DNA from: Spirochaetaceae bacterium
GTDB lineage: Bacteria > Spirochaetota > Spirochaetia > UBA9216
Length of the DNA stretch: 42,137 bases
Assembly: GCA_028527945.1 (NCBI GenBank)
Contig: JAQQAK010000197.1
Location: 1-42,137, forward strand
Direction: 5' to 3'
Position 1 is the stretch's first letter. Each line of letters begins with the position of its first letter. Under the pieces are notes generated by a model that was not told where the DNA came from, did no database searches, and saw only the letters and a list, made by a program, of their open reading frames with translations. The translations under genes and the position numbers were made by a program. Below are positions 3,510 through 28,666 of the stretch, piece after piece.

Positions 3510-3517
3510 GTAGTTGT

Positions 3518-6342: not shown

Positions 6343-6353
6343 GGAGGTTCAGA

Positions 6354-7004
6354 ATGGATAATTTTATTGTTACTATTGCCAGAGGATTTGGTTCTGGAGG
6401 AAAGAGAACTGCATTCCAGTTAGCCAAAGATTATGGAATAGAATGTTATGAAAGTCGGATTTTAACTTTAGCGTCTCAGCTTAGTGGGATAGAAACAGAT
6501 AAGTTTATCGAGATTGACGAAAGGCTTCGTGAAAAAAAGGCCTTTGATGTTTTAAAAAAACTTCCCTTTGTAAAAAATACTGATGCAGTTTTTCATAAAT
6601 TTGTTTCAGATCAGCTCCTTTTTGATTATCAGGCTAAAATTATTCAGAAACTGGCAGAATCAAAATCCTGTGTTATAGTCGGTAAGTGTGCTGATTTTGT
6701 TTTAAAGGATTATAAAAACGTGGTTAGTGTTTATATTGAGGCTCCCAGAGAATATACCAGAGAACGTATTATGAACCTTAAAAAGGTTCCTGCAGAAATT
6801 GCTGATGATATGATTACCCGTACCGACAAATATAGAGCTGATTATTACGAAGCATATACCAACGGTAATTATTGGACAAATCCAGTAAACTATGATCTTA
6901 CCCTAAATAGTTCAACATTGGGAATCGAGGGCTGTGTTTACATGATCAAACATTGTTTAAAACAAAAACTTGGTGTCGAATTACCAAAACATGCCTCTGA
7001 ATAA
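6354..7004 (+). CDS. Cytidylate kinase-like family protein (P-loop NTPase)
   Basis: The N-terminus IARGFGSGGK... is typical of the cytidylate-kinase-like family. SD AAGGAGG precedes the ATG at 6354; the ORF-track start at 6315 overlaps the previous gene and lacks an SD. Confidence 0.6.
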   Translation: MDNFIVTIARGFGSGGKRTAFQLAKDYGIECYESRILTLASQLSGIETDKFIEIDERLREKKAFDVLKKLPFVKNTDAVFHKFVSDQLLFDYQAKIIQKLAESKSCVIVGKCADFVLKDYKNVVSVYIEAPREYTRERIMNLKKVPAEIADDMITRTDKYRADYYEAYTNGNYWTNPVNYDLTLNSSTLGIEGCVYMIKHCLKQKLGVELPKHASE

Positions 7005-7132
7005 ATTGGAGCACCAGTCTTGCAACAGTATTGAAATAATTTGGTCATAGCAATTTAAGCCCTTGAGCAAAAAATCAACATTATACTATTTTATATTTTT
7101 TCACAATTTAAGTCTCTCTGAATATTTTCTTC

Positions 7133-8137
7133 TCAGCATATTCGGGGAAGAAGTTCTCCTCCGGGTTCAGGGAGCAATGTTTTGGCTCCTATTTCTGTTT
7201 TCATAACAACCCTTCCCGGCATTTCTGAGGTTACTTCTCCTATCACAGCAGCCTCCTTTGAATACGGAAGCTGTCTGAGAGTTTTTACTATCTGCTCGGC
7301 CTCATCCATTGGCGCAAAAACTACAAGTCGGCCTTCACAGGCAAGGTACAGTGGTTCAAGTCCCAACATTCCACAGACCCCGGCGACTTCTCCTGATACT
7401 GGAATCTCTTTTGAATCAAGACATATTCCTACATTGCTCTGGTTGGCAATTTCGTATAATACAGTTCCAACACCTCCCCTTGTTGCATCTCTTATTACAT
7501 GTAGTGTCTTTGTAACCTCGAGCATTTTCTCAACTGCTCCCCAAAGAGGAGCACAGTCACTTTTTATGCTTGTTTCAATCCCAAAATCTTCTCTGGACAA
7601 CAGAATAGAACATCCATGTCTTCCGATATCTCCAGTTACAATAACAGCGTCTCCTACACAGGCTTTACTTCCGGACAAGCTTATACCCTCTGCAAGCTGC
7701 CCAACACCGCTTGTTGTAATAAAAATATTATCAATCTGCCCCTTACCAGCGACCTTTGTGTCTCCGGCAACTATCTTCACACCTGTTTCTTTTGCCGTTT
7801 TTTCCATTGATGACGCAATTTTTTCAAGAATAGTCAGAGGAAAGCCTTCTTCAATAACAAAGGCGCAGGTCAGGTATAATGGCTTTGCTCCCATGCAGGC
7901 AAGATCGTTTACTGTCCCGCAAATACTTAGCTTGCCGATATTCCCTCCAGGAAACTCAAACGGTGAAACAATGAATCCGTCTGTTGAAAAAGCAATCTTT
8001 CCAGAGTCTATTTGAAGAATAGCCGCGTCATCTGCTGTAAGTAAGGGATTTGAGAAATGAGTTTTAAATACCTCATCTATCAGCATGGAAGTCTGTTTTC
8101 CTCCTGCCCCGTGTGCCAATGTAATATTTTTTTCCAT
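7133..8137 (-). CDS. hypE: Hydrogenase maturation protein HypE (carbamoyl dehydratase, PurM-like)
   Basis: The N-terminus is LAHGAGGK. The protein has PurM-like architecture and ends with the invariant PRIC motif carrying the cyanated cysteine. The ATG at 8137 overlaps the hypD stop (TAATG). Confidence 0.92.
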   Translation of the reverse strand: MEKNITLAHGAGGKQTSMLIDEVFKTHFSNPLLTADDAAILQIDSGKIAFSTDGFIVSPFEFPGGNIGKLSICGTVNDLACMGAKPLYLTCAFVIEEGFPLTILEKIASSMEKTAKETGVKIVAGDTKVAGKGQIDNIFITTSGVGQLAEGISLSGSKACVGDAVIVTGDIGRHGCSILLSREDFGIETSIKSDCAPLWGAVEKMLEVTKTLHVIRDATRGGVGTVLYEIANQSNVGICLDSKEIPVSGEVAGVCGMLGLEPLYLACEGRLVVFAPMDEAEQIVKTLRQLPYSKEAAVIGEVTSEMPGRVVMKTEIGAKTLLPEPGGELLPRIC

Positions 8138-9201
8138 TATAAGTTCCCTCCATATTGATAATAAGCTGAACATGCTCCCTCATTTGAAACCATGCATGCT
8201 CCAACCGGATGCTGTGGATTACAAATCTTTCCAAACAGTCCGCATTCTGTTGGTTTGCATTTGCCCTGAAGAATGTCTCCGCAGCGGCAGGCCGGATTAC
8301 TTTTTCCGGGAATCTTTGGAAGATTAAAACGTGTTCTTGCGTCAAAATCTTTGTAGTCGGCTCGGAGTTTCAAACCTGATTTTTTTATCTTACCAAGTCC
8401 ACGCCATTCTGAATCACAACTTTCCATTGTTTCGTTTACAAGTTCTTGTGCCGGTATATTTCCTTCGGATTTTACAACCCTTGGATAGCAGTTTTTGAAA
8501 AAAGGTTTACCCTTTTCTGACAGTTTGATTGCAACCGCCAAGGCCGTTAGAAGTTCATTAGCGGTAAATCCTGTCACAACTCCAGATACTCCTTCTTTTA
8601 CAAGGCTTTCACATACTGATGTGCCGGCTATTGCGTCTACATGTCCGGGATAAAGAAAGGCGTCCGCGCTGTTTTTTAGAATCTTGTATGCTTCTGGCAT
8701 TGTTTTATTTGCTACAAGTAAACTGAAGTTTTTGATTCCATCAGCCTTTGCCTTCTTTACAGCCAGGCATGATGCCGGAGTTGTTGTTTCAAATCCAACA
8801 GAAAGAAAAACTATTTCTTTATCCGGATGCTCTTTAGCGTATGATAGAGCGTCAACAGGCGAGTAGACCATCTTTATTGAGGCTCCTTTTTGTCTTGAAT
8901 CAGCAAGGCTCATTTTTGAGCCGGGAACCCTAAGGAGATCTCCAAATGTACAGATTACAGCCCTATGTTCAAGCGCCAACATAAGGCTTTCATCAATAAA
9001 GCCTACCGGTGTAACACAGACCGGGCAGCCTGGGCCTGAAATAAGTTTTATAGTGTCTGGCAGAATATTCCGTATTCCCAGACGAAATATCTCGTGGGTA
9101 TGTGTCCCGCATACCTCCATGATTCGTAGAGGTTTTCCTTTGTAGGATTCAATTATCTCTTTTGCCGACATTTTTTTATTTTCTATGCAAGCCGTCTTCA
9201 T
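8137..9201 (-). CDS. hypD: Hydrogenase maturation protein HypD
   Basis: It carries the conserved motifs MEVCGTHTH and GPGCPVCV and a C-terminal Cys-rich Fe-S region. The ATG directly abuts the hypC stop (TAAATG). Confidence 0.92.
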   Translation of the reverse strand: MKTACIENKKMSAKEIIESYKGKPLRIMEVCGTHTHEIFRLGIRNILPDTIKLISGPGCPVCVTPVGFIDESLMLALEHRAVICTFGDLLRVPGSKMSLADSRQKGASIKMVYSPVDALSYAKEHPDKEIVFLSVGFETTTPASCLAVKKAKADGIKNFSLLVANKTMPEAYKILKNSADAFLYPGHVDAIAGTSVCESLVKEGVSGVVTGFTANELLTALAVAIKLSEKGKPFFKNCYPRVVKSEGNIPAQELVNETMESCDSEWRGLGKIKKSGLKLRADYKDFDARTRFNLPKIPGKSNPACRCGDILQGKCKPTECGLFGKICNPQHPVGACMVSNEGACSAYYQYGGNL

Positions 9202-9408
9202 TTATAGTGACTCCATGATCTCATCAGTTTCATCTTCATCATTATCTGTAATCTTGGCGATTGCTATTCCGGCATGAACCATTACATAATCTCCCGGTTC
9301 CAGATCCTTTATAAGCTCTGCCGAGATCTCTCTTTTAGCTCCGGATGCGTCAATTATGGCCATTCCGTTATCAATTCCAATTACCTTTGCTGATAATCCA
9401 ACACACAT
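9202..9408 (-). CDS. hypC: Hydrogenase maturation chaperone HypC/HybG/HupF family
   Basis: The protein is 68 aa and begins MCVG, which places the essential Cys at position 2. SD AGGAGGG lies upstream. Confidence 0.9.
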   Translation of the reverse strand: MCVGLSAKVIGIDNGMAIIDASGAKREISAELIKDLEPGDYVMVHAGIAIAKITDNDEDETDEIMESL

Positions 9409-9419: not shown

Positions 9420-11735
9420 TTAAAATTCATGTTTTAAACTTGTCATTGCTATAACCGCCTGTCCAAGGGCTATAGCTCCATCGTTAGGCGGTGTCAGGCT
9501 GTGAAGCAGAACCTTGAAACCTTTCTTTTCAAGACTTAATACACACAAGGATGTAAGAAGCTTGTTCTGAAATACACCTCCACTCAACGCGCATGTATTT
9601 AGTCCAGTGCTGTCGCGGGATATCTTGCATCCCTCTGTAATCATTTCAGATAGAACTGAATGAAATTCAAACGCGAGCTGTTCCTTTTCTATTCCAGCAA
9701 GAACGGAATCGGTTATATGTCTAAAGAGCAGATCTGTGCTTAGCTCAAATTTTCTACCGTTTTTCGAGAGCATTTTCTTTGCCCATTCTTTTACGGGAGA
9801 TTTTGCTCCTTTAAAGTTTTCTGCCGCAAACTGCAAGGCCATAGCCGCTTCCCCTTCAAATGTTGAACATTTTTTTATAGAAAGAACTGCGCTTACAGCA
9901 TCAAAAAGTCTTCCGGAGCTTGTGGAGCTAACAGTATTAATGCCTCTATCTATTATTGCTCTTTGAATATTCATCTCTTTCTTTGTGCAGAGCTTAAGGC
10001 TGTTAATTATTTCTTCAGATTCATTTCCGTAAATTTGACATAGCATTGAGACGGCGATTTTCCATCCTTCTCTTGCTGAAGAATCTCCGCCGGGCTGAGT
10101 GAATGGGCAGATACTACCAAGCCTTTCAAAATCCCTGTAAGAAGCCCTGAGGAATTCTCCTCCCCATATACTTCCGTCTGTTCCATATCCGGTACCGTCA
10201 AAACATACGCCTATAACATCTTCCTTATAATTATTTTCTGCCATGCAGGAGGCTACGTGTGCCCAGTGGTGCTGTACCCTGATAACTGGAATATTCAGTT
10301 TTTCAGCAACCATGACCGAATTATATCCGGGATGTAAATCACAGGCTGCGATCTGTGGTTCTGCTTCAAGAAGTCCTTTCATTCTTGTTATGGACTCTTT
10401 AAGAGCAGTAATTGTTCGTATGTCTGAAAGATCTCCGACATACGGCGATAGATAAAAAAGATTGCCTTTTCCTATGCAGAATGAATTTTTCAATTCTCCG
10501 CCAATTCCTATAACCTGGCCGTTTAAGGTTTCTGACAACAGAAAAGGAAGGGGGGCGTAGCCACGAGATCGGCGAATCATATACGGTTTATGTTGAAAAA
10601 AGTCCATCACTGAATCATCAGCGCGAAGCAATATTCTTCGGTTATTAGAAAGTATTAGATCGCAGAAGCTTCTAATTTCGGAAATTGCGTCTTTGTCATT
10701 TCGGCAGATGGGCGCTCCTGATACATTACCGCTTGTCATAAGAAGGCAGTCAGTCATTTTTATATTATCATCGTATTCAAAAAGGAGCATATGTACCGGA
10801 GTGTACGGCAACATAACGCCTACAGTCGGATTATCTGGAGCAATTTGATTGCATAAGCTGCTATTAGCTTTCTTTGGTAACAGAATTATTGGTTTTTCAT
10901 GACCTGTAAGTATTTTTTCCTGCTCAGGTAGTATTGCACATTCTCTTTTTGCGGTATCTATATCGCGGAGCATAACTGCAAAGGGTTTAGTAGGGCGGTT
11001 TTTAAGACGTCGTAGACGGCTTACTGCCTTTTGATCTTTGGCATTGCAGCATAGGAGAAACCCTCCTATTCCTTTAACAGCTATAATCTTTCCTTCCATT
11101 ATTGCTTTTCTGGCTGTAGTTATGGCTTCACGATTTTTTTCTTTTTGACCTATAATATACAGTTCCGGGCCGCAGCTGTTGCAGCATACTGGTTGGGCGT
11201 CATACCTTCTTGTTTCAGAATGAGTGTATTCATATTCGCATTCATCGCACATTGGAAAGTCCGCCATGGTTGTTCGCTCTCTGTCGTATGGAAGAGATTC
11301 AAGGATGGTAAGTCTCGGCCCACAATTAGTACAGTTTATAAAAGGATGAAGGTAGCGCCTGTTGTTTTTGTCAAAGAGTTCCTCCCTGCATTTGTCGCAT
11401 GTTGCTATATCCGGAGATACAAAAATATCTCCACTTTCTTTCTTGCTATCTATTATTCTAAAACTATCAAAGAGTTCTTCTGTGGAATCATTGATTTCTA
11501 TTTTTATTATTGCTGACCTCTCCGGAGGAGTTTTTCTTAGCGCTTCTAAAAGACCTTTGATAGCAGATTCAGAGCCTTGTGCTTTTATCTCGACAAAAGA
11601 CCCTTTGTTTGCTACCCAGCCCTTTATTCCCAGTGCGCAGGCTGTTTTACTGACAAAGGGTCTAAATCCTACTCCTTGTACAATACCGTAAACACGAATA
11701 ACACGGGCAGCTGTAGCTATTAATTCCGCCTTCAT
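9420..11735 (-). CDS. hypF: Carbamoyltransferase HypF
   Basis: The 771-aa protein has an N-terminal acylphosphatase domain (VQGVGFRPF) and two CxxC...CxxC zinc-finger pairs (CDKC..CTNC, CDEC..CNSC). YrdC-like and Kae1-like C-terminal regions follow. The ATG overlaps the stop of the upstream nitrogenase-like gene (ATGA at 11732-11735). Confidence 0.93.
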   Translation of the reverse strand: MKAELIATAARVIRVYGIVQGVGFRPFVSKTACALGIKGWVANKGSFVEIKAQGSESAIKGLLEALRKTPPERSAIIKIEINDSTEELFDSFRIIDSKKESGDIFVSPDIATCDKCREELFDKNNRRYLHPFINCTNCGPRLTILESLPYDRERTTMADFPMCDECEYEYTHSETRRYDAQPVCCNSCGPELYIIGQKEKNREAITTARKAIMEGKIIAVKGIGGFLLCCNAKDQKAVSRLRRLKNRPTKPFAVMLRDIDTAKRECAILPEQEKILTGHEKPIILLPKKANSSLCNQIAPDNPTVGVMLPYTPVHMLLFEYDDNIKMTDCLLMTSGNVSGAPICRNDKDAISEIRSFCDLILSNNRRILLRADDSVMDFFQHKPYMIRRSRGYAPLPFLLSETLNGQVIGIGGELKNSFCIGKGNLFYLSPYVGDLSDIRTITALKESITRMKGLLEAEPQIAACDLHPGYNSVMVAEKLNIPVIRVQHHWAHVASCMAENNYKEDVIGVCFDGTGYGTDGSIWGGEFLRASYRDFERLGSICPFTQPGGDSSAREGWKIAVSMLCQIYGNESEEIINSLKLCTKKEMNIQRAIIDRGINTVSSTSSGRLFDAVSAVLSIKKCSTFEGEAAMALQFAAENFKGAKSPVKEWAKKMLSKNGRKFELSTDLLFRHITDSVLAGIEKEQLAFEFHSVLSEMITEGCKISRDSTGLNTCALSGGVFQNKLLTSLCVLSLEKKGFKVLLHSLTPPNDGAIALGQAVIAMTSLKHEF

Positions 11736-12778
11736 TTTTCAAGCCTTCCAGATACCGCAAAATGTGGAAAGTCAATAAATCGTCCATTATATTTTTTCAT
11801 TACACGCCTGAAAATTTCATCTCCAATAACTACATCATAATCTCCACTTTCTAAAATTCCTTTAAGCTGATCCTCTTCTGTAAGTCTGAAATCATGCTCT
11901 TGCATCAGGCTCTCTTTCAGCATAAACCATGACGCTACGGTGATATCAGCTTCTGTTTTTTTCAAGATTAAATCTCTAACACTATTGGCCGCTACCTGTT
12001 GGTGAATTATCAGTATTTTTTTCCCCTTTAATTCATAGAGCTCTTTTTGAAGGCTTTCCGGGATGGGTATGATATTAGTGATATAAGGAGTTCCAAATTT
12101 TTCTTTAAGGTATTCTGCTGCCTTAAGCCCCGATGGGGAAACTACAATATTTTTTTCTACTGCCGAAGCCTTTTTTATAAATTCAAGTCCGCTTCCCATT
12201 CCATAACAGGTTGTGTTTTTCCATCCTCTATTTTCTAAATATACTGTTATATTTTTTTCAGCTTCCAGGTTGCTGAAATCAAGAGGTGTTGCACCTATCA
12301 CGCCTGCACTTCCTTTCTTTACTGGTAGTTGTTCGACACTGAAGGTTTTAAAAAGCTCCAGATACGCTTGTTCTGCGCCCTCGTCATAATATCTGGTTCC
12401 GGTTGTTTCTATTGTTATAGACGGCAGTCCTGTGCGTTTTTCAGCCATTCGTTTCAAAGCCTTGAAGTCTGTAGCTATTACCGCCGGAACAGGGGTTCCT
12501 ACAAGGGTTGTGAAGTCTACATTTGTTTTGGACGCTGCATCCTGAAGTTTTTCAATAAGTTTGTCATCACGCCCAAGGATAGCATCTATATCGCGGAGTC
12601 CTGCACTAAAAATAGCGCTTTTTTTATGAAACCACCGCGGTTCATCAAATCCACATATATTTCCGGTACATCCTCCCGCGTCACAGATTACTGTAAGACC
12701 ACCAAGCTCGTATAAAACTGACACTGCGCCAGAAAGATCCGGAGCAAAGGGAGACAGCCGCTTTAAAAGATTATTCAT
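11732..12778 (-). CDS. Nitrogenase component-1-type oxidoreductase subunit, beta (NifK/NifN)-like, cassette 2
   Basis: It lies after a NifH-like/NifD-like pair. It shares N-terminal motifs with the 14869..16020 paralogue (SGxxSxLYELGGxTVxxDAxGC and DEPRW). At 348 aa it is shorter than canonical NifK/NifN. Confidence 0.7.
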   Translation of the reverse strand: MNNLLKRLSPFAPDLSGAVSVLYELGGLTVICDAGGCTGNICGFDEPRWFHKKSAIFSAGLRDIDAILGRDDKLIEKLQDAASKTNVDFTTLVGTPVPAVIATDFKALKRMAEKRTGLPSITIETTGTRYYDEGAEQAYLELFKTFSVEQLPVKKGSAGVIGATPLDFSNLEAEKNITVYLENRGWKNTTCYGMGSGLEFIKKASAVEKNIVVSPSGLKAAEYLKEKFGTPYITNIIPIPESLQKELYELKGKKILIIHQQVAANSVRDLILKKTEADITVASWFMLKESLMQEHDFRLTEEDQLKGILESGDYDVVIGDEIFRRVMKKYNGRFIDFPHFAVSGRLEK

Positions 12779-14072
12779 TTATTATTCCTCCTGACAAAGC
12801 TGTATTGAGACTTGTAAAAAGTCTTTTAACTCCTGAGTAACCAAACGGTTGGCGTTCTTCGTTCCAGTAGATTCCAGGACATTCTGAATGGTAATAGGCC
12901 GCGTCCTGGCCTATGAAGGCGTCTGCGTCTGAGTTTTCAGCGCTATGGTAGAGCATTGTTGGAGACAGGTTTGAATAGATTCTTGTTTCCGGACTTATAT
13001 CCGAAATCTTCTTTATATATGCGAAGTTTATCTCGCCTGCCGTCCCATAAATATCGGAGACTGAAAATCCGTAACGTATTAATGCCAGAGATAATTCAAA
13101 TGGATCCGCGTTTACCCATTCACCTACCGCAAATATACGATTACTATGCTTTTTGTAGCATTCCTCTATAGCTGAAAGGGCTTCGTCATAGTATTTTTGA
13201 TCATCAAACTTTATTCCGGCAGCCTCTCCAAATAGTTTATATTGAGTTTGAATTTTGTCGATCTGATACATTCTGTTTAATTCTATACCAGGAATTTCCA
13301 GTCTGTCTGCCATATCCTGTGCAGCGTATCTTGCCTCCTGATTAAGAATCAGATTAAAGTTTGCTTCGGACATCTTCATGTATTCATTAAAATTTTCACA
13401 TCTGGAAATTTCCCGGATTTGAGTGACACCCGCTTTTTTAAGCATGGTGTAGAGTTCACATTCATCATCAATAGGAGAAAAATATCCAAGCAGGTTAACC
13501 GATGTCGGCTTTTTGGGAGTAGGCTCAAGAAGAGAATAGATCGATTTTCTTACCGCGGCCATTGGAGGGAGCCTCCCTTCTCTAGTAAGGGCGTACATAT
13601 AGCATGGCAGAACTGGAATGCCCACAAATGCTGAGGCCTTCCGACATACCCGTTCCATATCGGTACCAAGAAGGGCGTCTACACATGTTATACAGATCAT
13701 AACAACAGATGGTGGTTGTTCACATGCTTCGCAAACTTCTTTAACGGCCTCTGGTATCTTTGAAAGATGGCGTCCTGTTACAATATCCGTTTCATCCATC
13801 AGCATATAGAAGAACTTGTCGGAATCGCCTTCTTTTCCTCCAGCCAATGTGGTGTTTCTTCCACAGCAGGCCGGAGCCGCAAGTAACATAACAGACCCTG
13901 GAATAGACAGCCCCGCGCGTTTGACTCCAAATCCCTGAGCACCAGGAGAATTAAAGGCTAGGGTTGCCGGAGAGCTGTAGATCATATGAGCTGAAGACTG
14001 AAGTTCTGCAGGAATATTATCCTGCCCCAAAGCCGCAAGTTGTTTTGCTGTGATGCTGTAAACATTATTCAT
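12771..14072 (-). CDS. Nitrogenase component-1-type oxidoreductase subunit, alpha (NifD/NifE)-like, cassette 2
   Basis: The size (~434 aa) and position after the NifH-like gene fit an alpha-like subunit. Cys-containing motifs are [16 protein letters not shown] and [10 protein letters not shown]. It is a paralogue of 16017..17348. I chose the ATG at 14072, preceded by GGAGG at 5-nt spacing; an alternative ATG lies at 14087. Confidence 0.7.
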
Positions 14073-14829
14073 TAGAGCCTCCGTCATTAATAAACTGCTC
14101 TGCCAGTTTCAGGAATATCTGGCTTACATGAAGCATTTTGTCTCCCTCTATAACGGTTTTTCCCATATCCTCATAGCGGATAATGTCGTCACTTCTTGGT
14201 ATATCAGCTATGATAGGGAGTCCGGCTTTATTAGCGAAATCAGTAACCTTTTCCTCTTCCCTTTCAACACTTCTCCGGTTCATCACAATTCCCTTAACCT
14301 TTGCGTAGCCACGATCTTCGAAGTTGTTTACTGCTGTGTTTATATTGTTTGCGGCATACAAGGCCATTTTTTCTCCTGACGTTACAATAATAATCTCCGA
14401 GGCATAGCCCTCACGTATTGGGGCCGCAAATCCACCACATACAACGTCTCCTAGCACATCATATAAAACAACATCGGGCTGATACTTCTTAAATAGTTTA
14501 AGATCCTCAAGAAGGCTGAATGTTGTAATTATTCCCCGTCCAGCGCATCCCAGACCAGGAGTAGGGCCGCCTGTTTCTATGCATAGAATCCCTTTGAACC
14601 CTTCCTTTGCAATATCTTCTATTTTTTCAGGTTCCCGGTCATATTCGCGTAAATAATTCATAACTGGCATAACAGGATTGCCGTTAAGCAGGTTTGTTGT
14701 AGAGTCAGCTTTTGGATCACATCCTATCTGAATTACTTTCTTGCCAAGAGCCGCAAAGGAGGCGGCAAGGTTGCTTGTAATAGTTGACTTTCCTATTCCG
14801 CCCTTTCCGTAAACAGCAATCTTTATCAT
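14065..14829 (-). CDS. NifH/BchL/CfbC-family ATPase ([4Fe-4S] reductase component), copy 2
   Basis: It carries P-loop GKGGIGKS and switch I CDPKADST, plus both cluster-ligand cysteine motifs (GCAGRGI and GDVVCGGF). Length is 254 aa. SD GGAGGA lies upstream. Confidence 0.9.
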
Positions 14830-14868
14830 AGTTCCTCCAGTATTTGTTTCTTTATATTCATAGGCACT

Positions 14869-16020
14869 TTAAATATCTCTAAAAACTGTAGCTTTTAGAG
14901 ATTCCTTTATCATATTGGGTATTTCGCTTCGATAGCATCTTCCGGAGAAGGCCTCATGCGGAAGTCGGTAAAACGGTACATCATTAGGGCAGATGGGCTT
15001 ATAAAGGGGGTCTGCTATAATTCCGGATGCAAGAGCAAGCTCTTTTTCCGCGCTTTCTTCGTCCGGAATTTCACCATCACTTTCTGCCTGCAATTCAGTT
15101 GATGTTTCAAGCGGACATAAAACCCTTGCCGTCTTTCCGTATTCCAGCTCAATAGCGCGTGCTAACGAACCGGAATAAATGCTTTCACCTACTATTGAAA
15201 GATTGCTCCCGTTTGTAAAACGTTCTGAACTCGGAAAGAGGTTTTCTTTGTTTTTTGAAGCTGTTCTCAATTTATCTGCGAGAACTCCAGCAAACTTTTG
15301 ACCGAATGGGACTCCGGTAACATATGGTGTTCCGAATCTCTTTTTCAACAGTTTTGCCGCGGAAAGCCCACTGTATGATATAACCAGATTTACACTGGCT
15401 CCGGCGGCGTTTTTTATATCTTCAAGGCTGCTTCCCATTCCCATACAGGAGACTGTGCTAAACCCCTCCGTGTAAAGCCATTGTTTTATAGATTTGATAC
15501 TTCCGTTTACAGAGAAATCAAGCGGTGTTGCACCCAGTATATTTACAGAATCTTTTTTTTGCGGCATGTTATCTTCTTTACAGAAGCGATTTATTATTGC
15601 CTCGAATGCTTCTGAGGCTCCTTTTAAATAAGAATGCATTCCATTTGTCTGTATACAAAAAGAAGGTATACCTGTGTTTTCTTCTATTTCTATAGCTAAT
15701 GCCTGATAATCTGTTCCAATCATCATTGCTACGGGAGCTCCACATAGGGCAATGAATTTGGGCGAAAGCTTACTTGCTGTTTCTGTAATATCTGAAACCA
15801 GCTTTGCATCATCCCCCATTATTGCCTCAGTTTCTGTGAGGGCGGAAATGTATACCATGCTGTCAATATCGTACCACCTTGGTTCATCGTGTGTTGTATA
15901 TGTCGAGTTGCATCCTGAAGCGTCATGAACTACTGTCATGCCTCCCAATTCATAGAGGGCAGAGCACACACCAGAGGTGTCTGCCGCGTATATTGGTATA
16001 ATTCTTGCGCTATGTTTCAT
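14869..16020 (-). CDS. Nitrogenase component-1-type oxidoreductase subunit, beta (NifK/NifN)-like, cassette 1
   Basis: It is a paralogue of 11732..12778 with the same N-terminal motifs (SGVCSALYELGGMTVVHDASGC, DEPRW). The ATG at 16020 overlaps the upstream stop (ATGA); the ORF-track start at 16026 is a TTG codon. Confidence 0.7.
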   Translation of the reverse strand: MKHSARIIPIYAADTSGVCSALYELGGMTVVHDASGCNSTYTTHDEPRWYDIDSMVYISALTETEAIMGDDAKLVSDITETASKLSPKFIALCGAPVAMMIGTDYQALAIEIEENTGIPSFCIQTNGMHSYLKGASEAFEAIINRFCKEDNMPQKKDSVNILGATPLDFSVNGSIKSIKQWLYTEGFSTVSCMGMGSSLEDIKNAAGASVNLVISYSGLSAAKLLKKRFGTPYVTGVPFGQKFAGVLADKLRTASKNKENLFPSSERFTNGSNLSIVGESIYSGSLARAIELEYGKTARVLCPLETSTELQAESDGEIPDEESAEKELALASGIIADPLYKPICPNDVPFYRLPHEAFSGRCYRSEIPNMIKESLKATVFRDI

Positions 16021-17348
16021 AAGCAACTCTCACATCCAAGCCCCTTATAGCTTATTAGCTCTTTTGTTTTTTTTGGCTTAAGGCTGGCCTCTATCATCAT
16101 TTCTGCTAACCGGATTATTCCGCTAAAACCGTATAGCCCTCCACCTGAGACTATGTTGACAAAATATGGTGTATTATTGAAATAGGCTGCTTTTTGACCT
16201 ATTGCAAGAACCTTTCTTTCTGGAATTTCTTTTTTAAGAAAACGCTTTTCAGGATGAACCGTTGAAGCTAATAAAATATTAGGCGCATGTTCTTTCAACC
16301 AAATAAAGTCTTCTTCTTCAGTAGCCACAAAGGCCTCGGAATAAATTTTTTCTACTCTAAAACTGTGTTCTGTCAGCAGCCTTGCCAAGCTTATTGGGCG
16401 TGGAGTCGCTGTGTAATCTATTGTTATGGGAAGATTTCCTATTTCTGTATGAGCCGCCTCAAGAGCCTTTTCTGCCTTTCTTATATCTTCTGAAAAATCC
16501 GGTATTTTCATATCTAATTCTACAGAAAGTCGTTTAAAATTCTCTGTTATTTCATGATATGAATAGCTTAAAGGTATATGCAGGTGTCTCTGTCCAAGGC
16601 GCCGTTCAAGTTCCTCTCCAGCAGCATAGGTTGTTGGAAGATATGTAATATTTACAGCACTCTCGGCCATATTAAGAAAGGCCTTGTAGCTTTTGCAGTT
16701 TGTAATGTCTTTTATCACAAAGCTGCTTTTTTTTATCATTGTAATAAGTCTACCTGATTGATCTGTCGGTCTATCATTTCCAATTATATTGATGCTTTTG
16801 CTGTTTTTAGGCACAGGTTTTAGCGGGCTATAGAGTTGTTTACGCATCAGGGCATCCGGAGTAAGACCACTCTTTCGCATAGTAGGAGTCATATAGCTTT
16901 CAATAAAGTCTACAGTTGGAAATCTTTTTTCAAGCTCTTTAAGCGTTATAGCAAAATCGCAGCATGCAAAAAGATGTACACAGCTTAAAAAAACTAATAC
17001 AACAGGAGGCAACGTTTCCATTTTATTCAAGATTTCTGTAGTTCCATTTACAATATCGTCTTCAAGACTCGCATCAAGAAAGTCGTTTTCACAGATTGAA
17101 ACCCATGACATCCTGTCCATGGCGTTCATTTCGGCAGCTGTTAAAATTACTCCACGAAGGCAGCCCTGTGCGCATATAAAAATTTGATGCGATTCAGGGA
17201 TAAGCATCCCTGTATGCACTATATTCCATGTTCCTCTTGCCGGAGCATTGTATTCCAGGCCTGTAATAAATGGTTCAGGAAAGGCTGCCTTTGCAATACT
17301 TATCTCAGGGGCTTTAGTTTCATTAATAGTTTTAAGACTTTTCAGCAT
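16017..17348 (-). CDS. Nitrogenase component-1-type oxidoreductase subunit, alpha (NifD/NifE)-like, cassette 1
   Basis: The 443-aa protein has Cys motifs [16 protein letters not shown] and [13 protein letters not shown]. Their arrangement resembles the three-Cys cluster-ligand pattern of NifD/NifE/BchN. It overlaps the NifH-like gene by 7 nt. Confidence 0.7.
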
Positions 17349-18109
17349 AATTGTTTCCTATAGTCAAGTTTCAGAAGCCTTTCCGCTATCTTCCTGTATT
17401 GTTTGGCCATTTCGCTTTCAGGAAAGGCTTCTATAACCGTCTTTCCGGTAAGTTCTGCTTCTTGAACGGTCGTGCTCCAGTCCAGCTTTCCTATAATTTT
17501 TGTTTCAAGATCTTCTGCGAGCTCTTTTACTTTAGCTGATTCATTTTTTACGTTACGGTTGTTTTGAATAAGTCCAGCAAGAGAGGCGTATCCTCTCCCC
17601 TGGAATCCCTCAACTGCCATAGCAATATTGGCCGCGGCATGAAGAGCCATATTTTCTCCCGATGTAATGATGAGAACCTTGTCTGTGTATCCTCCTCTCA
17701 TTGGCATAGAGAATCCCCCGCACACAACGTCTCCCAGAACGTCGTATAAAACTACATCCGGTTTGTATTTTTCGTACGCGCCCTTTTGAGCCAATTTCTC
17801 AAGAGCTGTAATAATTCCGCGTCCGGCACATCCTTTTCCAGGCATTGGCCCTCCCGCTTCAACACAAATAACATTACCAAAGCCCCGGCATACCATATCT
17901 TCCAAATCGAAATCGTTTTTATATTCTCTGACAAGCTCAAGAACAGTAGGTAGTTTTGTATTGGAATGAAGGCTTTTTGTAGAATCAGCCTTTGGATCAC
18001 AGCCTATCTGCATTACGCTGAGCCCTGTTTGTGAAAGTGCTGCTGCAATATTGGATGTAGTGGTGGACTTTCCTATTCCGCCTTTTCCATATACGGCTAT
18101 TTTAATCAT
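17342..18109 (-). CDS. NifH/BchL/CfbC-family ATPase ([4Fe-4S] reductase component), copy 1
   Basis: It carries P-loop [23 protein letters not shown] and GDVVCGGF. Length is 255 aa. The ATG overlaps the hydE stop (ATGA at 18106-18109). Confidence 0.9.
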
Positions 18110-19161
18110 GAATTATTCCTTCCTTTATAATCACCTCTTGAGATTTTTATGTCATACCCGATAGACGACATCCGTTTGCGCAAATCTATCATGCATCTTG
18201 ATGTTTCAACGTCAGAGTTTTGTTTGTTGTTGTAAAGCATGTATTTGCCCCTGACCCGACTGGGGGATAGATTTGGCATAATAACGTTTGCTCCTGCAAG
18301 AATACCTTTTTCCCGTCCTTCAGGATCGATAGTTCCAAGGGCTGTTGTTGCCGGCAGTAGAACATCCGGCAGCATAATTCTGCAAAGGCTAAGAAAGAAT
18401 AAACTTGTCTCAAGGCTTCCGGTTTTTTCAGCAGCAAATGGGGTGTCCTTATGGGGGATAAAAGGGCCTATACCTATCATTTCAGGATTAAAGTTTGATA
18501 GAAACTCCATATCCTTAACCATACAGTCTATATTCTGGTAGGGAGCTCCTACTATAAAACCACAACCTGTTTGATAGCCTGTATCTTTCAAGTCCTGTAG
18601 ACAGCGCATACGGTTTTTCCATGACTGCTTAGCGGGGTGCAGTGCTTTGTAGTGTTTTTCATCTGCTGTTTCATGTCTAAGCAGGTAGCGGTCTGTTCCA
18701 GCTTTAAACAGGTTTGTGTAATCTTCCGGTTTCAGCTCTCCCACTGAAAGAGTTACTGCTGAATCCGGATATTTATTTTTAATTTCAGAAACAATATCTG
18801 CCAGTTTATCAGTTGTAAAATATGGATCTTCGCCGCTTTGAAGAACAAAGGTTCTAAATCCCTGGGAATGGCCCTTTTGGCAGCAGTTAAGGATATCTTC
18901 TTTCGATAGTCTGTATCTGCCTATTTTAGAATTGGAATGCCGTATTCCACAATAATAACAGTCATTTTTGCAAAAGTTTGAAAATTCTATTACGCCGCGT
19001 ATATATATACTTTTTCCAAATTTTTGTAATACGACAGTTCTGGCAATAAAAGCTGCATATGTTCTATCCTCTTCTATCCAGCTGGATAAAAGCTTTTTCC
19101 ATTCTGAAGAAGATAGCCTTTTTTCTTTATTAAGACGATCAATTAATTCCATATTATTCAC
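18106..19161 (-). CDS. hydE: [FeFe]-hydrogenase H-cluster radical SAM maturase HydE
   Basis: The protein is BioB-like and ~350 aa, with the radical SAM motif in the HydE-typical context [17 protein letters not shown]. It sits next to hydF and the aspartase-like gene, as in known hyd maturation clusters. The listed start is GTG at 19161; an alternative ATG lies at 19152. Confidence 0.82.
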
Positions 19162-20434
19162 AGGCTGAATCTCTATTATTGTTTTTCAGAAGTATTTTTA
19201 GTTTTTCTTCCGCCTCAGAAGGTGTTTTGCTTGCTTTTACGATCTCTGCCACGGTGTCGTATCCCAGGACGGTGCTGTAGGAGGTGGCATAAGCAAATGA
19301 ACGTTTTAGAAGTTTTTCACAATTTATTTTGTTTGGAATCAAAACCGATATACATTTTTCATCAAAAATACATACCGCACGTTCCAAAAGATTCAGGCTT
19401 TCAAGCATAGAGTCGGCTATTAATGGAAAAAAGGCATTCAACTCAAATTCTCCATGAGCCGCTGCCATTGTTATCGCATTATCATTAGCAATAACTCGCA
19501 TCGCGCACTGCATAACCATTTCCGGAATTACTGGATTAACCTTCCCGGGCATTATGCTACTTCCTTTCTGCATTTCGGGAAGGGTTAACTCTCCAATTCC
19601 TCCCCTTGGCCCAGAGGCCATAAGGCGGATATCGTTTGCTATCTTCATCAGATTTACGGCAAGAGCCTTTAGCAGACCGGAAGTTTCCACAAAAACATCA
19701 TTATTCTGGGTGACATCCATTGGATATTCTGCCGAGGCAAGTCCTATGCCTGTGAGTTCCCGTAGAATCTCTATTATTCTGAAACGATACTTCCGCTCTG
19801 CGTTATCGTATCGACCTACTGCTGTTCCTCCAATGTTAACTTGCCTCAGACGTTCTTCAACCTTGTACAAGCGCCATCGGTCCCGGGCAATAGCTTGGGC
19901 ATAGGCTCCAAACTCACTTCCAAGAGTTATTGGAACAGCGTCCATCAGTTCTGTTCTTCCAAGTTTTTTTATCTCATCAAATTCCTTTTCTCTCGTCTGT
20001 AAGCTTTCCTGAAGTTTGGCACATGCATCGCTTAAATTTCGCAATAGTCTGACTGCTGCTATTCGAAGAGCTGTAGGGTAGACATCGTTTGTTGATTGTC
20101 CACGGTTTACATCGTTTAGTGGATGAACCAGTCTTCCTGTTTTTTCTGAAGCAGCCGTGGCAATGACTTCATTAAGATTCATATTTGTTGATGTTCCAGC
20201 TCCTCCCTGAAGGGCTTCTATGATAAAACTGTCATCAAATTCACCGTTGATAATTCTGTCGCATATTTCGGCTATACAATTGTACATTTCTGGTTTTATG
20301 TTAAGTTCTTCATATGTTAGAGCGGCCGCTTTCTTTACTACGGCAATAGCGTAAATCAAATTTATATTTGTTTTTTTATGATTCAAACTGAAATTATTCA
20401 TGGCTGATTCTGTTTCTTTTCCGTAATATGTCAT
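19154..20434 (-). CDS. Aspartate ammonia-lyase/class II fumarase superfamily protein (hyd-cluster-associated lyase)
   Basis: It carries the superfamily signature GSSIMPGKVNPVIPE. At 426 aa it is shorter than canonical AspA/FumC. The ATG overlaps the hydF stop (ATGA). Confidence 0.8.
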   Translation of the reverse strand: MTYYGKETESAMNNFSLNHKKTNINLIYAIAVVKKAAALTYEELNIKPEMYNCIAEICDRIINGEFDDSFIIEALQGGAGTSTNMNLNEVIATAASEKTGRLVHPLNDVNRGQSTNDVYPTALRIAAVRLLRNLSDACAKLQESLQTREKEFDEIKKLGRTELMDAVPITLGSEFGAYAQAIARDRWRLYKVEERLRQVNIGGTAVGRYDNAERKYRFRIIEILRELTGIGLASAEYPMDVTQNNDVFVETSGLLKALAVNLMKIANDIRLMASGPRGGIGELTLPEMQKGSSIMPGKVNPVIPEMVMQCAMRVIANDNAITMAAAHGEFELNAFFPLIADSMLESLNLLERAVCIFDEKCISVLIPNKINCEKLLKRSFAYATSYSTVLGYDTVAEIVKASKTPSEAEEKLKILLKNNNRDSACE

Positions 20435-21645
20435 TTGTCAGCTGGCTCCAGAACAGAGGCTAATCCGGGGAAAATAGCGATACTTCGTTTAAGTATTCCC
20501 TGCATATAAGCAATTGTTATTCCGTAATTTGTGAATGGAATCTTCTGATCCATCGAACATTTCATGCGGTAAACCATTTCTCTCCCTGTAAGCATGCAGC
20601 CGCCGCAATGTATGATTAAAGAATATTGTTCAAGCTCATCGGGAAATTCTGTTCCAGAAACTGTTTCAATAGAGATAGATTTTCCTGTGTAGTTTCTAAG
20701 CCACCGCGGGATTTTTACGCTTCCTATGTCATCGCATTGCCTATGATGGGAGCACCCCTCCGCTATAAGTACCCGGTCTCCGTCTTTCAGAAATTCTACT
20801 GCCGCAACGCCTTTGACTGCAGTGTTTAAAAAGCCTTTGTATCTGGCCATAAGTATGGAAAAGGAGGTTAGGGGAATATCTGGAGGAGTGTCGGCCGAAA
20901 CCTTCGCGAAGACCTGACTGTCTGTAATTACCATCGCAGGTTTTTCTCCAAGTTTTTCAAGGGTTCCCCTCAGTTCGAACTCTTTTACTACAATGGCCGC
21001 TGCGTCAGCCTCAAGGATATCTCTTATCGTCTGCTGCTGCGGGAGAATCAGACGCCCTTTTGGCGCAGCCTTATCAACCGGGACTACAAGTATTACGAAA
21101 TCGTCAGGATTAATAAGATCGCCAACAATCTGCAGCTTCGAATCTCTTACATCAATAGATTTGGAAATTTTTTCTTTTAGCTCATTTATTCCTGTTTTCT
21201 GAATAGCGCTTGTACATATTTCATGTGAATTATTTGTTGGTAGATTATCTTCAAGATCGCATTTATTTAGCACAACGATATAAGGAATATTTTTTTGTTT
21301 AAATATTTCAATCAGCTCTTTTTCACAACCATCTTGAGCTTCTGTAATATCTGTTACAAGAACTGCGACATCTGTTTTATTCAGAACCTGTTTTGTTTTT
21401 TTTACGCGCATTTCTCCAAGTTTTCCTGAATCGTCAAAACCTGGGGTGTCAATAATCATTACCGGGCCCATTGGCAGTAATTCCATTGCCTTGTACACCG
21501 GATCTGTTGTTGTTCCTTTTTGGTCTGAAACAAGAGCAATATCCTGATCTGTTACCGCGTTTACAATACTGGACTTTCCAGCGTTTCTTCGTCCGAAGAA
21601 TCCTATGTGTATACGATTTGCCGATGGTGTATCATTCATTCCCAT
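20431..21645 (-). CDS. hydF: [FeFe]-hydrogenase H-cluster maturation GTPase HydF
   Basis: The N-terminal GTPase G1 motif is GRRNAGKSS. The C-terminal cluster-binding motif is CSHH...(about 45 aa)...HCGGC. SD GGGGAGG lies 5-6 nt upstream of the ATG. Confidence 0.88.
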   Translation of the reverse strand: MGMNDTPSANRIHIGFFGRRNAGKSSIVNAVTDQDIALVSDQKGTTTDPVYKAMELLPMGPVMIIDTPGFDDSGKLGEMRVKKTKQVLNKTDVAVLVTDITEAQDGCEKELIEIFKQKNIPYIVVLNKCDLEDNLPTNNSHEICTSAIQKTGINELKEKISKSIDVRDSKLQIVGDLINPDDFVILVVPVDKAAPKGRLILPQQQTIRDILEADAAAIVVKEFELRGTLEKLGEKPAMVITDSQVFAKVSADTPPDIPLTSFSILMARYKGFLNTAVKGVAAVEFLKDGDRVLIAEGCSHHRQCDDIGSVKIPRWLRNYTGKSISIETVSGTEFPDELEQYSLIIHCGGCMLTGREMVYRMKCSMDQKIPFTNYGITIAYMQGILKRSIAIFPGLASVLEPADK

Positions 21646-21669
21646 GTTTACCTCCCCGTTTATAACCGC

Positions 21670-21709
21670 AAAAAAAAAGATAGCCGTACCCTGACGGATA
21701 CGGCTATCT
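21670..21709 (-). terminator. Intrinsic terminator-like hairpin plus U-run, lying between the TM1266-like gene and hydF
   Basis: The stem is a perfect 11 bp (21678-21688 pairs with 21699-21709) with a 10-nt loop. On the minus strand it is followed by nine T residues (21678-21670). The U-run ends 24 nt before the hydF ATG. Confidence 0.7.
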
Positions 21710-21846
21710 TGCGCTTTCGTGATTAATAGCTATATCGAACTTTCGTCTCAATAAAAATTTTGACGTCAGGTGATACTTTGCTTCAGGAACTTTTGTTCCC
21801 AATATATGTAACCGGGGTTTTTATGTCCCGATATTGTCTAATATTT

Positions 21847-22110
21847 TTAAGTGTCTGCCTTATTTATAATATTTGAATAGACTGTTTTGGCTGAAACACC
21901 ATTAAGTCTGCCAATCTTTCCTGCAAGATTGTTAATGATGTCCTGCGGGGCATCAATAGCGACGCTTATAATATTAACACCCTTTTCTTTGTATGGAAGC
22001 CCCATTCGCCCAATAATGTAAGAACCTGTTTCATGCAATAAGGCGTTAATCTGAGTTGCAGAATCTCTGCTCTCCGCTATTATTGAAATAACGGCTACTC
22101 TTGTTTCCAT
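21847..22110 (-). CDS. Small ACT-like protein of the TM1266 family (putative iron-only hydrogenase system regulator)
   Basis: The ~87-aa sequence METRVAVISII...SYIIGRMGLPY...VNIISVAIDAP matches my recollection of the TM1266-type family that accompanies hydE/F/G. I chose the ATG at 22110, preceded by GGAGGAAAC; the ORF-track start at 22143 falls inside the putative promoter. Confidence 0.65.
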   Translation of the reverse strand: METRVAVISIIAESRDSATQINALLHETGSYIIGRMGLPYKEKGVNIISVAIDAPQDIINNLAGKIGRLNGVSAKTVYSNIINKADT

Positions 22111-22128
22111 GTTTCCTCCATTTAAACA

Positions 22129-22156
22129 ATTATTCACACACATGGTTAAATGTCAA
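22129..22156 (-). promoter_or_regulatory. Putative sigma70-type promoter for the TM1266-like gene and the downstream operon
   Basis: On the minus strand there is a perfect -35 TTGACA (22156-22151), a 16-nt spacer and -10 AATAAT (22134-22129, 5/6 match). It lies about 20 nt upstream of the SD/ATG at 22110. Confidence 0.4.
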
Positions 22157-28660: not shown

Positions 28661-28666
28661 TGTTGT

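Follow-up and report, generated by a model that had tools for sequence, protein, structure and literature searches.

Two nitrogenase-like cassettes coupled to hydrogenase-cofactor maturases in a Spirochaetales operon: a possible assembly line for an Fe-CO/CN-type cofactor

Why would two sets of nitrogenase-like genes be placed in a single operon with the maturases known from the making of hydrogenase cofactors? The question is raised by a 42,137-nucleotide stretch of DNA from a metagenome-assembled genome (MAG) of the Spirochaetales (assembly GCA_028527945.1, contig JAQQAK010000197.1, positions 1 to 42,137), which will be called the window. Between positions 11732 and 18109 it carries six packed open reading frames (ORFs) on the minus strand, which an ORF check of the window resolved into two nitrogenase-like (NFL) cassettes, H1-D1-K1 followed by H2-D2-K2, each with a NifH-like reductase (H), a NifE/D-like subunit (D) and a short NifN/K-like subunit (K). 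The answer we lean towards, to which we give a little less than an even chance, is that the operon encodes an ATP-driven assembly line for a metallocofactor of the Fe-CO/CN type, organised in the way NifEN feeds NifDK. The arrangement itself was recorded in 2012 by Dos Santos et al. (PMC3464626); the Spirochaetales locus is an addition to that type of gene cluster, which has had no assigned function since.

The main functional clue is what lies on either side of the cassettes. The preliminary description, the structural reading of which was largely right, missed these flanking Hyd and Hyp genes. The operon consists of 13 genes in the order hydF-aspA-hydE-H1D1K1-H2D2K2-hypF-hypC-hypD-hypE, with a TM1266-like gene upstream. 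In the direction of transcription, the genes are:

21847-22143, minus strand: TM1266-family ACT-domain protein ("iron-only hydrogenase system putative regulator"; TIGR03959, 106 bits against a cut-off of 60.8), with the real start probably at Met12, near 22110
20431-21645, minus strand: HydF, the [FeFe]-hydrogenase H-cluster maturation GTPase/scaffold (TIGR03918, 573 bits against 326; HydF_dimer and HydF_tetramer domains)
19154-20434, minus strand: AspA-like ammonia-lyase of the kind typical beside hydF (Lyase_1, 276 bits; PRK12273, 509 bits)
18106-19161, minus strand: HydE, the radical-SAM H-cluster maturase (TIGR03956, 525 bits against 255; E 2.5e-80 to Thermotoga maritima HydE, 3cix)
17342-18109, minus strand: H1, NifH-like ATP-dependent [4Fe-4S] reductase of cassette 1 (255 aa)
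16017-17348, minus strand: D1, very divergent NifE/D-like subunit of cassette 1 (443 aa; conserved C59, C63, C123, C218 and C-terminal C439xxC442)
14869-16026, minus strand: K1, short NifN/K-like subunit of cassette 1 (385 aa, TTG start; conserved C21 and C39; DEPRW and PHEAFSGR)
14065-14829, minus strand: H2, NifH-like reductase of cassette 2 (254 aa)
12771-14087, minus strand: D2, NifE-like subunit of cassette 2 (438 aa; conserved C74, C75, C119, C132, C135, C148, C162, C230, H107 and H400; the start in the NCBI annotation is 5 codons further in than the ORF start)
11732-12778, minus strand: K2, short NifN/K-like subunit of cassette 2 (348 aa; conserved C32, C37 and C42; DEPRW and PHFAVSGR)
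9420-11735, minus strand: HypF carbamoyltransferase, for the first step of cyanide ligand synthesis (TIGR00143, 761 bits against 466; all five domains)
9202-9408, minus strand: HypC chaperone with an N-terminal Met-Cys (MCVGL...; TIGR00074, 60 bits against 48)
8137-9201, minus strand: HypD, the [4Fe-4S] scaffold for Fe(CN)2CO assembly (TIGR00075, 398 bits against 193; CGTHTH, GPGCPVC and GFETT motifs)
7133-8173, minus strand: HypE, the last gene of the operon, with the C-terminal PRIC cyanylation motif (...LLPRIC; TIGR02124, 424 bits against 252)

From hydF to hypE, neighbouring genes overlap or are separated by no more than 39 nt; both hydE/H1 and K2/hypF overlap by 4 nt. By this gene layout, the cassettes are translationally coupled to hydF-aspA-hydE upstream and to hypFCDE downstream. 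The Hyd and Hyp maturases of the operon all reach equivalog-level scores. The linkage of aspA and hydF has been recorded in hyd operons (PMC11736057), and the part made up of hydF-aspA-hydE and the TM1266-like gene is an ordinary hyd operon layout minus hydG; it is the fusion partner that is unusual. The scanned ORFs of the window include no HydG, HypA/B, endopeptidase or hydrogenase subunit; the scan took in the remaining ORFs of at least 110 aa apart from the final pair at the 3' end (40574-41563 and 41627-42109). HydG may be located elsewhere in the genome. The NFL cassettes are the sole candidate client proteins encoded within the operon.

Are the two cassettes really two different things? 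The preliminary description had them as tandem, intact and non-canonical copies that arose by an old duplication, and this account holds well: the coordinates and all of the peptide motifs it quoted were recovered, among them the D1 and D2 peptides by which the two D subunits differ in Cys content, and the DNA strings it gave for the two H N-termini begin exactly at 18109 and 14829. Its estimate that the H copies share about half their residues comes out as a measured identity of 49.8%. The K proteins share DEPRW and LYELGG and are short, as it had said, at 348 and 385 aa. Identity is 23% between D1 and D2 (E 6e-33) and 34% between K1 and K2 (E 1e-64). The description had also asked whether the cassettes might be near-identical in DNA, and likeness at that level is found only in short patches of 74-82% inside the H genes, with none in D.

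Because the DNA likeness is limited to these short patches, a recent duplication or an assembly artefact was rejected. Decaying pseudogenes were rejected as well, and the tandem layout is the only point in favour of any of the three. The frames are intact and the ligands invariant, and both copies are kept as separate monophyletic lineages in many phyla, with 49-82% protein identity to the window. In a neighbour-joining tree with a hand-entered Azotobacter vinelandii NifH sequence as the sole outgroup, 82 H1 and 46 H2 orthologues were reciprocally monophyletic. The mean H1-H2 identity of 50% is about the same as the identity of either to this A. vinelandii reference (46-47%). The two cassettes are an old duplication and represent two distinct orthologous lineages that have been kept together across phyla.

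Membership in the nitrogenase superfamily is immediately evident for five of the six proteins: Pfam finds Fer4_NifH in H1 (288 bits) and H2 (296 bits), and Oxidored_nitro in K1, D2 and K2. The sequence of D1 alone has no match in Pfam, NCBIfam or the PDB sequences. The profile of D1 orthologues, however, matches NifE with an E-value of 1.5e-5, a comparison of the D1 and D2 profiles gives an end-to-end alignment with an E-value of 6.6e-40, and the AlphaFold model of D1 (pLDDT 84.6) has the fold of nitrogenase component 1 with TM-scores of 0.6-0.68. The D2 model (pLDDT 85.6) has the component-1 fold, too. On these three grounds, D1 is a real member of the superfamily.

Would such proteins be able to work? 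In all H1 and H2 orthologues the P-loop, both switch regions and both cluster Cys residues are kept; the two H proteins of the window have GKGGIGKS at position 8, CDPKADST at 37, GCAGRGI at 93/94 and GDVVCGGF at 126/127. The earlier suggestion that the cassettes are catalytically competent thus stands at the level of intact motifs. For the D and K subunits (residue numbering here follows PMC13474568 and PMC3464626), the preliminary description had raised the loss of all inter-subunit cluster ligands as a sign of degenerate proteins, and they are not lost. The positions of NifD C88 and C154 are occupied by invariant Cys residues (C63 and C123 in D1; C74/75 and C135 in D2), as is the position of NifK C95/NifN C44 (C39 in K1 and C37 in K2). 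The set of six P-cluster Cys residues is nonetheless incomplete. Neither D1 nor D2 has a Cys at the position of NifD C62 (NifE C37). At that of NifK C153, the C95 of K1 sits two residues off and is 59% conserved, and K2 has nothing there. Of the six, the C88 and C154 positions are kept in D, and in K the C95 position is the certain one.

So small a set of inter-subunit ligands suggests a [4Fe-4S] cluster. A cluster of the [4Fe-4S] type is probably present between D and K in each pair, bound by two canonical Cys residues of D, one of K and further ones specific to the family. Several Cys residues are invariant within one family, namely C59 in D1, C21 in K1, the C74-C75 pair and C132 in D2, and C32 and C42 in K2, and these could provide the remaining ligand or ligands of such a cluster. 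The DEPRW and PHxAxSGR motifs are common to the K1 and K2 families.

The place where FeMo-co sits in NifD looks different. The Cys position that binds FeMo-co or the L-cluster (NifD C275, NifE C250) is Asn249 in D2 and, by a weak alignment that agrees with the D1/D2 profile alignment, Leu237 in D1. The sequences around NifD His442 allow no alignment; an invariant His400 lies nearby in D2, and D1 has no such residue. Two further features are shared by the D subunits. C218 of D1 aligns with C230 of D2 as an extra Cys, and position 151 of D1 aligns with the invariant C162 of D2, in a conserved CYM...R loop at the position of NifD C183. Both C218/C230 and the CYM loop should, from the alignments, line the pocket where FeMo-co sits in NifD, and each D subunit would present a strongly conserved pocket at this site. 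Position 151 of D1 (window 16896-16898) is Ser in this MAG and Cys in more than 80% of orthologues. The C-terminal tail of D1, GLGCESCL (residues 436-443, window 16020-16043), has low confidence in the model and is probably flexible; its CxxC (C439 and C442) is 92-96% conserved and recalls the C-terminal Cys arms of metal-handling proteins such as HypE.

With these residues in view, one can ask whether the cassettes are a divergent N2-fixing nitrogenase, as Group IV-A Nfa. The H proteins would fit, with every motif in place and an identity of about 46-50% to NifH and MarH. The other subunits would not: scores are 36-38 bits for TIGR01282 (nifD) and 33 bits for TIGR01286 (nifK) against cut-offs of 654 and 427, the C62 and C275 positions of NifD have lost their Cys as described, the K subunits of 348-385 aa keep a single canonical ligand, and the cluster has no NifB, NifEN, NifV or Mo-transport gene. 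We consider nitrogen fixation by these proteins extremely improbable.

The other characterised families are similarly distant. TIGR01287 (nifH) gives 315 and 302 bits for the H proteins against a cut-off of 394, NF033200 (CfbC) gives 312 and 293 bits against 402, BchL 202-210 against 345 and BchX 166-202 against 331, so that both H1 and H2 fall below the cut-off of every NifH-family equivalog model. For the D and K subunits, TIGR01283 (NifE) gives 66-70 bits against 505, BchB 29-59 against 490 and TIGR03282 (CfbD) 29 against 268. The best solved relative of H1 is MarH (9fmg_D, E 4e-70, about 50% identity) and that of H2 is Clostridium pasteurianum NifH (1cp2, E 2.5e-68); BchL matches H1 and H2 at 1e-40 to 1e-49, far behind NifH and MarH. 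D2 is closest to NifE and NifD, the D1 family profile also matches NifE best, and MarD matches D1 and D2 at E-values of 0.001-0.015. No NifB or NifEN was found in the window or in the related loci. Since the curated models score far below their cut-offs and the FeMo-co Cys position is replaced, the cassettes are, as judged from these comparisons, not nitrogenase, NifEN, DPOR/COR, CfbCD or MAR/ISR/Nfa.

How common is this arrangement? In a scan of one genome per species, the D1 family was found in 398 of 185,579 species. The carriers include Clostridium ljungdahlii, C. carboxidivorans, C. luticellarii, C. thailandense and C. muellerianum, as well as Ruminococcus, Oscillospiraceae, Lachnospiraceae, Peptococcaceae, many Lentisphaeria/Victivallales and one Synergistaceae chromosome. 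Relatives of the D1 family at 50-64% identity number more than 3,600 in the databases, including a 90%-identity cluster of 4,683 member sequences, and the family amounts to 227 clusters at 50% identity (E <= 1e-30). The gene cluster is common in human-gut and rumen bacteria, where single 90%-identity protein clusters hold 4,000-5,000 member sequences. The gene order recurs in Bacillota, Lentisphaerota and Synergistota in addition to this Spirochaetales MAG, and the most conserved protein of the set is H2, with 72-82% identity across phyla.

A synteny map, made by placing 14 window proteins on 87 loci, separates three types of loci. Type A (42 of the 87) has the order TM1266-[HydF]-[AspA]-HydE-H1D1K1-H2D2K2-HypFCDE; HydE is adjacent in 40 of the 42, TM1266 lies directly upstream of the cluster in 39, and HydF is adjacent in 13. 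Type B (six loci, from Clostridium acetogens) has the order H2D2K2-HypFCDE-[TM1266]-H1D1K1. Type C (11 loci) has cassette 1 only. The pair of cassettes is kept in 48 genome loci. In the metagenome loci seeded with D2 that have enough flank, HypFCDE follows directly after K2 in 31 of 31, and cassette 1 is also present in all 31. Cassette 2 therefore goes together with HypCDEF, and no locus sampled had it without cassette 1. Cassette 1 is linked to TM1266, in most cases to HydE as well, and can exist without cassette 2. The preliminary description had offered a scaffold plus an enzyme, in the manner of NifEN and NifDK, as one way to understand the pair, and it is this option that the asymmetry of the synteny favours.

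In the flanks of 24 type A and B loci, sampled to within 4 kb, HydG, HypA/B and hydrogenase subunits do not occur as a recurrent family, and no other family is common to these flanks, for which reason the cluster looks self-contained. A hidden conserved neighbour of one of these kinds was accordingly rejected, as none is among the recurrent flank families.

The type C loci offer a view of cassette 1 in a different company. Their order is TM1266, FecCD permease, an ABC ATPase fused to a TM1266-like domain, HydE, H1D1K1, Peripla_BP_2 and HydF, and the importer is one of the heme/siderophore/corrinoid class (IsdE-, SstD-, BtuC- and BtuF-like), with Peripla_BP_2 in 10 of the 11 loci and FecCD in 8. 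In locus L085 the importer genes are interleaved with hydE, H1D1K1 and hydF at 6086-8226 and 12487-13665, and the same was seen in L031, L035, L036, L040, L073, L076, L082 and L086. The fusion of an ACT domain to the ABC ATPase suggests that a ligand regulates uptake. HydG was not found in the flanks of the type C loci examined; gaps of about 1.9 kb and 1.2 kb were considered as possible hydG genes and rejected, as they encode the FecCD permease, the ABC ATPase-TM1266-like fusion and Peripla_BP_2.

An importer of this class brings up the possibility that the cassettes are plain substrate reductases acting on a tetrapyrrole, such as heme or a corrinoid, or on a sulfur compound, and that a common regulon (iron or TM1266) or chance spread by gene transfer accounts for the linkage to Hyd and Hyp genes. 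The characterised NFL systems other than NifEN do act on small molecules or tetrapyrroles (PMC13474568), the 2 + 1 pattern of canonical Cys residues resembles that of NFL clades located beside ABC transporters, and cobalamin genes and a Peripla_BP_2 protein occur nearby in the window. Such a reductase would hardly explain the translational coupling to the maturases, nor the presence of HypFCDE directly after K2 in every locus with enough flank in four phyla. The cluster has inside it no NifB/MarB-like, sulfur-metabolism or tetrapyrrole-biosynthesis gene, and the cobalamin genes of the window are outside the operon and are not conserved neighbours. We regard the simple-reductase explanation as improbable.

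How, then, might an assembly line work? HypF and HypE make cyanide, and HypC-HypD assemble the Fe(CN)2CO unit. Transfer of Fe(CN)2CO from HypCD to the apo form of a [NiFe] large subunit has been carried out in vitro (PMC11565642). In the operon, the first step would be just this, with HypF/HypE cyanide and HypC-HypD giving the Fe(CN)2CO unit. In the second, cassette 2, of which the D2K2 part is the more NifE-like and would be reduced by H2, would act as the scaffold or reductive station receiving Fe(CN)2CO. In the third, cassette 1 (D1K1 with H1) would stand downstream, either as the terminal enzyme that keeps the cofactor or as the last scaffold before it is handed over; cassette 1 is the one that travels with TM1266 and HydE, and often HydF. 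A fourth element applies to type C, where the importer may supply by uptake what cassette 2 and the Hyp proteins would otherwise make.

Several lines of evidence would point in this direction: the coupling within the operon, the identity of the maturases, the synteny across phyla, the NifE-like character of D2, the component-1 folds, the conserved Cys residues and the fusions described below. The lack of HydG, HypA/B or a hydrogenase subunit in the window, or as a recurrent family in the flanks, would be in keeping with it as well, as would the earlier and independent suggestion of a role in metallocluster assembly (PMC3464626).

There are also points that weigh against the assembly line. All of the proposed chemistry is deduced from neighbouring genes, and the direction of flow from cassette 2 to cassette 1 from patterns of presence and absence only. 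The type B loci (17 of the 31 metagenome loci, plus the Clostridium acetogens) have no HydE or HydF within 10 kb, and cassette 1 of type C occurs without adjacent Hyp genes. A group 1a [NiFe]-hydrogenase is present, too, in the Clostridium acetogens with the cluster (PMC9431212), and it could be the real client of the HypCDEF set. HydEFG and housekeeping proteins are reported to suffice for H-cluster assembly in vitro, so that no known step requires an NFL reductase.

In a rival account, the cassettes are not the end-users of a cofactor. They would instead be ATP-driven helpers that feed HydE/HydF and/or HypCD for ordinary hydrogenases encoded elsewhere, for instance by producing CO from CO2, reducing an Fe(II) synthon, converting Hyp-derived (thio)cyanide to the aminomethyl units of the dithiomethylamine bridge, or mobilising iron. 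The product would go to [FeFe]- or [NiFe]-hydrogenases, possibly supplementing or replacing HydG. In favour of this account, CO2, cyanide and thiocyanate are all substrates that nitrogenase and its Fe protein are able to reduce. The canonical hyd arrangement lacking only hydG, a HydE that is a close orthologue of the T. maritima protein, and the failure to find HydG in the window or the flanks examined all agree with a helper role, which was in fact proposed by Dos Santos et al. (PMC3464626). Furthermore, a canonical HydG was not found in two of the carriers, C. ljungdahlii and C. carboxidivorans; those clostridia do, however, have atypical HydG candidates, and C. autoethanogenum has HydG, also together with orphan HypCDEF (PMC9431212). 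Two complete component-1-like heteromers with conserved pockets would be a heavy investment for a helper, and both Escherichia coli and defined in-vitro systems need none of these proteins. All in all, we see a helper function as the main rival of the assembly line, somewhat unlikely though by no means negligible.

Within the assembly-line proposal, a more specific form can be put forward for cassette 1. H1 and D1K1 would constitute a new class of organometallic enzyme, a reductase with the nitrogenase fold, driven by ATP, that carries an Fe-carbonyl/cyanide cofactor (H-cluster-like or derived from Fe(CN)2CO) built by HypCDEF and HydE/HydF on the NifEN-like scaffold of H2 and D2K2. This form is speculative, and we consider it unlikely as it stands.

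Gene fusions give a further view of which parts belong together. In some loci of the Clostridium type (L001:10001-12103 and L008:9236-11329; proteins P0002, P0003 and P0402), H1 and D1 make up a single protein of about 700 aa, and such H1-D1 fusions support a physical coupling of the two. There are also longer representatives containing D1, of 850-1010 aa, the length of which suggests further fusions, possibly D1-K1. In one Oscillospiraceae MAG (L074:6138-9500), a 1121-aa ORF joins K2 (about 1-350) to a complete HypF (359-1113). This fusion may be an artefact of assembly or sequencing; a recurrent K2-HypF fusion was rejected, as it was seen only in L074 and in none of the 120 closest K2 homologues, so that the fusion carries little weight as support for the assembly line. 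The Ruminococcus-type loci have additions that are absent from the window, namely an extra 133-aa ORF without a Pfam or NCBIfam match between K2 and hypF and, in some of them, a cupin-domain ORF between hypD and hypE (coordinates of the extra ORFs: L005:15558-15959 and 19630-19959; L018:15602-16000; L071:15689-16096).

The start of the operon has regulatory candidates of its own:

22129-22156, minus strand: best sigma-70-like promoter match (TTGACA-16-AATAAT), before the TM1266-like gene; a consensus match, in a region with a number of hits no higher than in shuffled sequence
21677-21710, minus strand: terminator/attenuator-like hairpin of 15 bp followed by T9, in the 201-nt spacer (21646-21846) from the TM1266-like gene to hydF

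The stem of the hairpin, AGCCGUAUCC-loop-GGAUACGGCU, was found again in the same spacer of Clostridium, Caproicibacter, Synergistaceae, Ruminococcus and Lentisphaeria loci, and these spacers hold the motif at about 50 times its density over the loci as a whole. The stem shows a few compensatory changes among loci, and an Rfam scan of the window, the hairpin included, gave no match. The hairpin may be an attenuator under the control of TM1266 or of a ligand.

The other ORFs of the window comprise a Nik/Opp-like ABC transporter, cobalamin lower-ligand genes, regulators, a B12-radical-SAM protein and a few unknowns. The transporter, of the nickel/peptide type (912-6342, plus strand), runs towards the 3' end of the operon. 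A solitary Peripla_BP_2 binding protein stands further upstream, beside an AraC-type regulator (25330-26475, plus strand), and it is not a conserved neighbour in the other loci. The set for the cobalamin lower ligand and aminopropanol (27037-31932, minus strand) includes cobT, cobC, cobS, cobU, an aminotransferase and cbiB, and the region 36906-40542 (minus strand) encodes a DeoC-like aldolase, a B12-binding radical-SAM protein and a 414-aa ORF without a family match. Both the transporter and the cobalamin genes were considered as parts of the system and rejected, as neither is a conserved neighbour and the transporter runs convergent to the operon. The G+C content is 0.40-0.425 over 8000-32000, which takes in the operon and the genes upstream of it (with one 2-kb bin at 0.378), and 0.33-0.39 at both ends of the window; this contrast and the scattered cross-phylum distribution are compatible with horizontal acquisition.

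It is worth considering what would follow from each of these answers. The function of most NFL systems is an acknowledged open problem, and the context is unusually informative here, with two NFL systems in one operon with the makers of Fe-CO/CN cofactors in four phyla, in a cluster that is widespread among gut, rumen and acetogenic anaerobes. To our knowledge, the cofactors of hydrogenases are the only biological Fe-CO/CN cofactors. Should the cassettes carry or process a CO/CN-ligated iron cofactor, they would represent a new class of enzymes and tie three systems of metallocofactor assembly together; an Fe-CO/CN enzyme would be the first case of Fe-CO/CN chemistry outside hydrogenases, and the first functional bridge between assembly machineries of the Nif, Hyp and Hyd types. 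Should they be helpers of hydrogenase maturation, they would close several gaps, among them the source of CO under anaerobic conditions, the apparently orphan HypCDEF sets and the atypical HydG candidates reported in acetogens. C. ljungdahlii and C. carboxidivorans are genetically tractable and industrially used, and the presence of the cluster in such cultured acetogens makes the hypothesis directly testable.

We would like to end with a comparison of the operon with the systems it resembles. One parallel is NifEN/NifDK. In both cases there are two paralogous heteromers of the component-1 type with NifH-type ATPase reductases, in one cluster with radical-SAM and carrier proteins; D1 and D2 match NifE best and have the component-1 fold, and the putative scaffold, cassette 2, was never found without its partner. 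The positions of C62 and C124 of NifE and C44 of NifN are kept as Cys, whereas those of C37 and C250 are not, and the likeness to NifEN is one of architecture only. The cluster also differs in having no NifB, NifX or NifV, with Hyp and Hyd maturases as its accessory genes instead, in K subunits that are 100-170 residues shorter, in having its own reductase for each cassette, and in scores that reach about 10% of the cut-offs.

With DPOR (BchLNB), COR (BchXYZ) and CfbCD, the cassettes have in common an ATP-dependent NifH-like reductase and a component without FeMo-co ligands. BchL is much more distant, however, and the cluster has no genes of the chlorophyll or any other tetrapyrrole pathway. 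CfbD is a homodimer without a K subunit, whereas here D and K are distinct partners, in a bacterial host and with no cfb genes. MAR (MarBHDK) and ISR (Groups IV-C and IV-F) are similar in being non-nitrogenase NFL systems of anaerobes, and MarH is the best solved relative of H1; in contrast to MAR, ISR and Nfa, the operon has no MarB/NifB-like gene (its only radical-SAM protein is HydE), an incomplete set of P-cluster ligands and no context of sulfur metabolism.

The likeness to HypABCDEF and HydEFG lies in the maturases themselves. HypC, HypD, HypE, HypF, HydE and HydF are all at equivalog level with intact catalytic motifs, and TM1266 and aspA accompany hydF. Compared with a complete [NiFe] system, only HypC, D, E and F are there, and HypA, HypB, the endopeptidase and the large subunit are neither in the window nor recurrent in the flanks; compared with a complete [FeFe] system, HydE and HydF are present, and HydG is not in the window or the flanks examined. 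A similar picture was drawn by a 2022 survey of Clostridium acetogens, which found HypCDEF sets without HypA/B and had difficulty finding a canonical HydG in several of the carriers, and did not notice the NFL neighbours (PMC9431212). From the other side, a 2026 survey of NFL proteins in Chemical Reviews considered genetic context to be of little help beyond the associations with sulfur and tetrapyrroles, and never mentions Hyp or Hyd (PMC13474568). In the searchable literature, we found no functional study joining nitrogenase-like systems with Hyp or Hyd, and the work of Dos Santos et al. alone proved relevant.

That work, published in BMC Genomics, describes "two closely linked NifHEN-like copies" in gut Firmicutes, Coprococcus and Dorea among them, which lie next to genes of hydrogenase maturation, with two conserved Cys residues in the D/E-like protein (NifD C88 and C154) and one in the K/N-like protein (NifK C95), with nifH-nifE fusions in some members of the class, and with active-site metallocluster assembly as the suggested role (PMC3464626). 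The Spirochaetales locus shares the two linked H/E/N-like sets, the 2+1 Cys pattern and the adjacency to maturation genes, some of its relatives have H-D fusions, and by the published description it belongs to this double NifHEN-like class. The 2012 account is brief and has no modular analysis, TM1266, importer variant or leader hairpin. What the present locus adds is a member in the Spirochaetales, in which hydF-aspA-hydE, both cassettes and hypFCDE make up one coupled operon.

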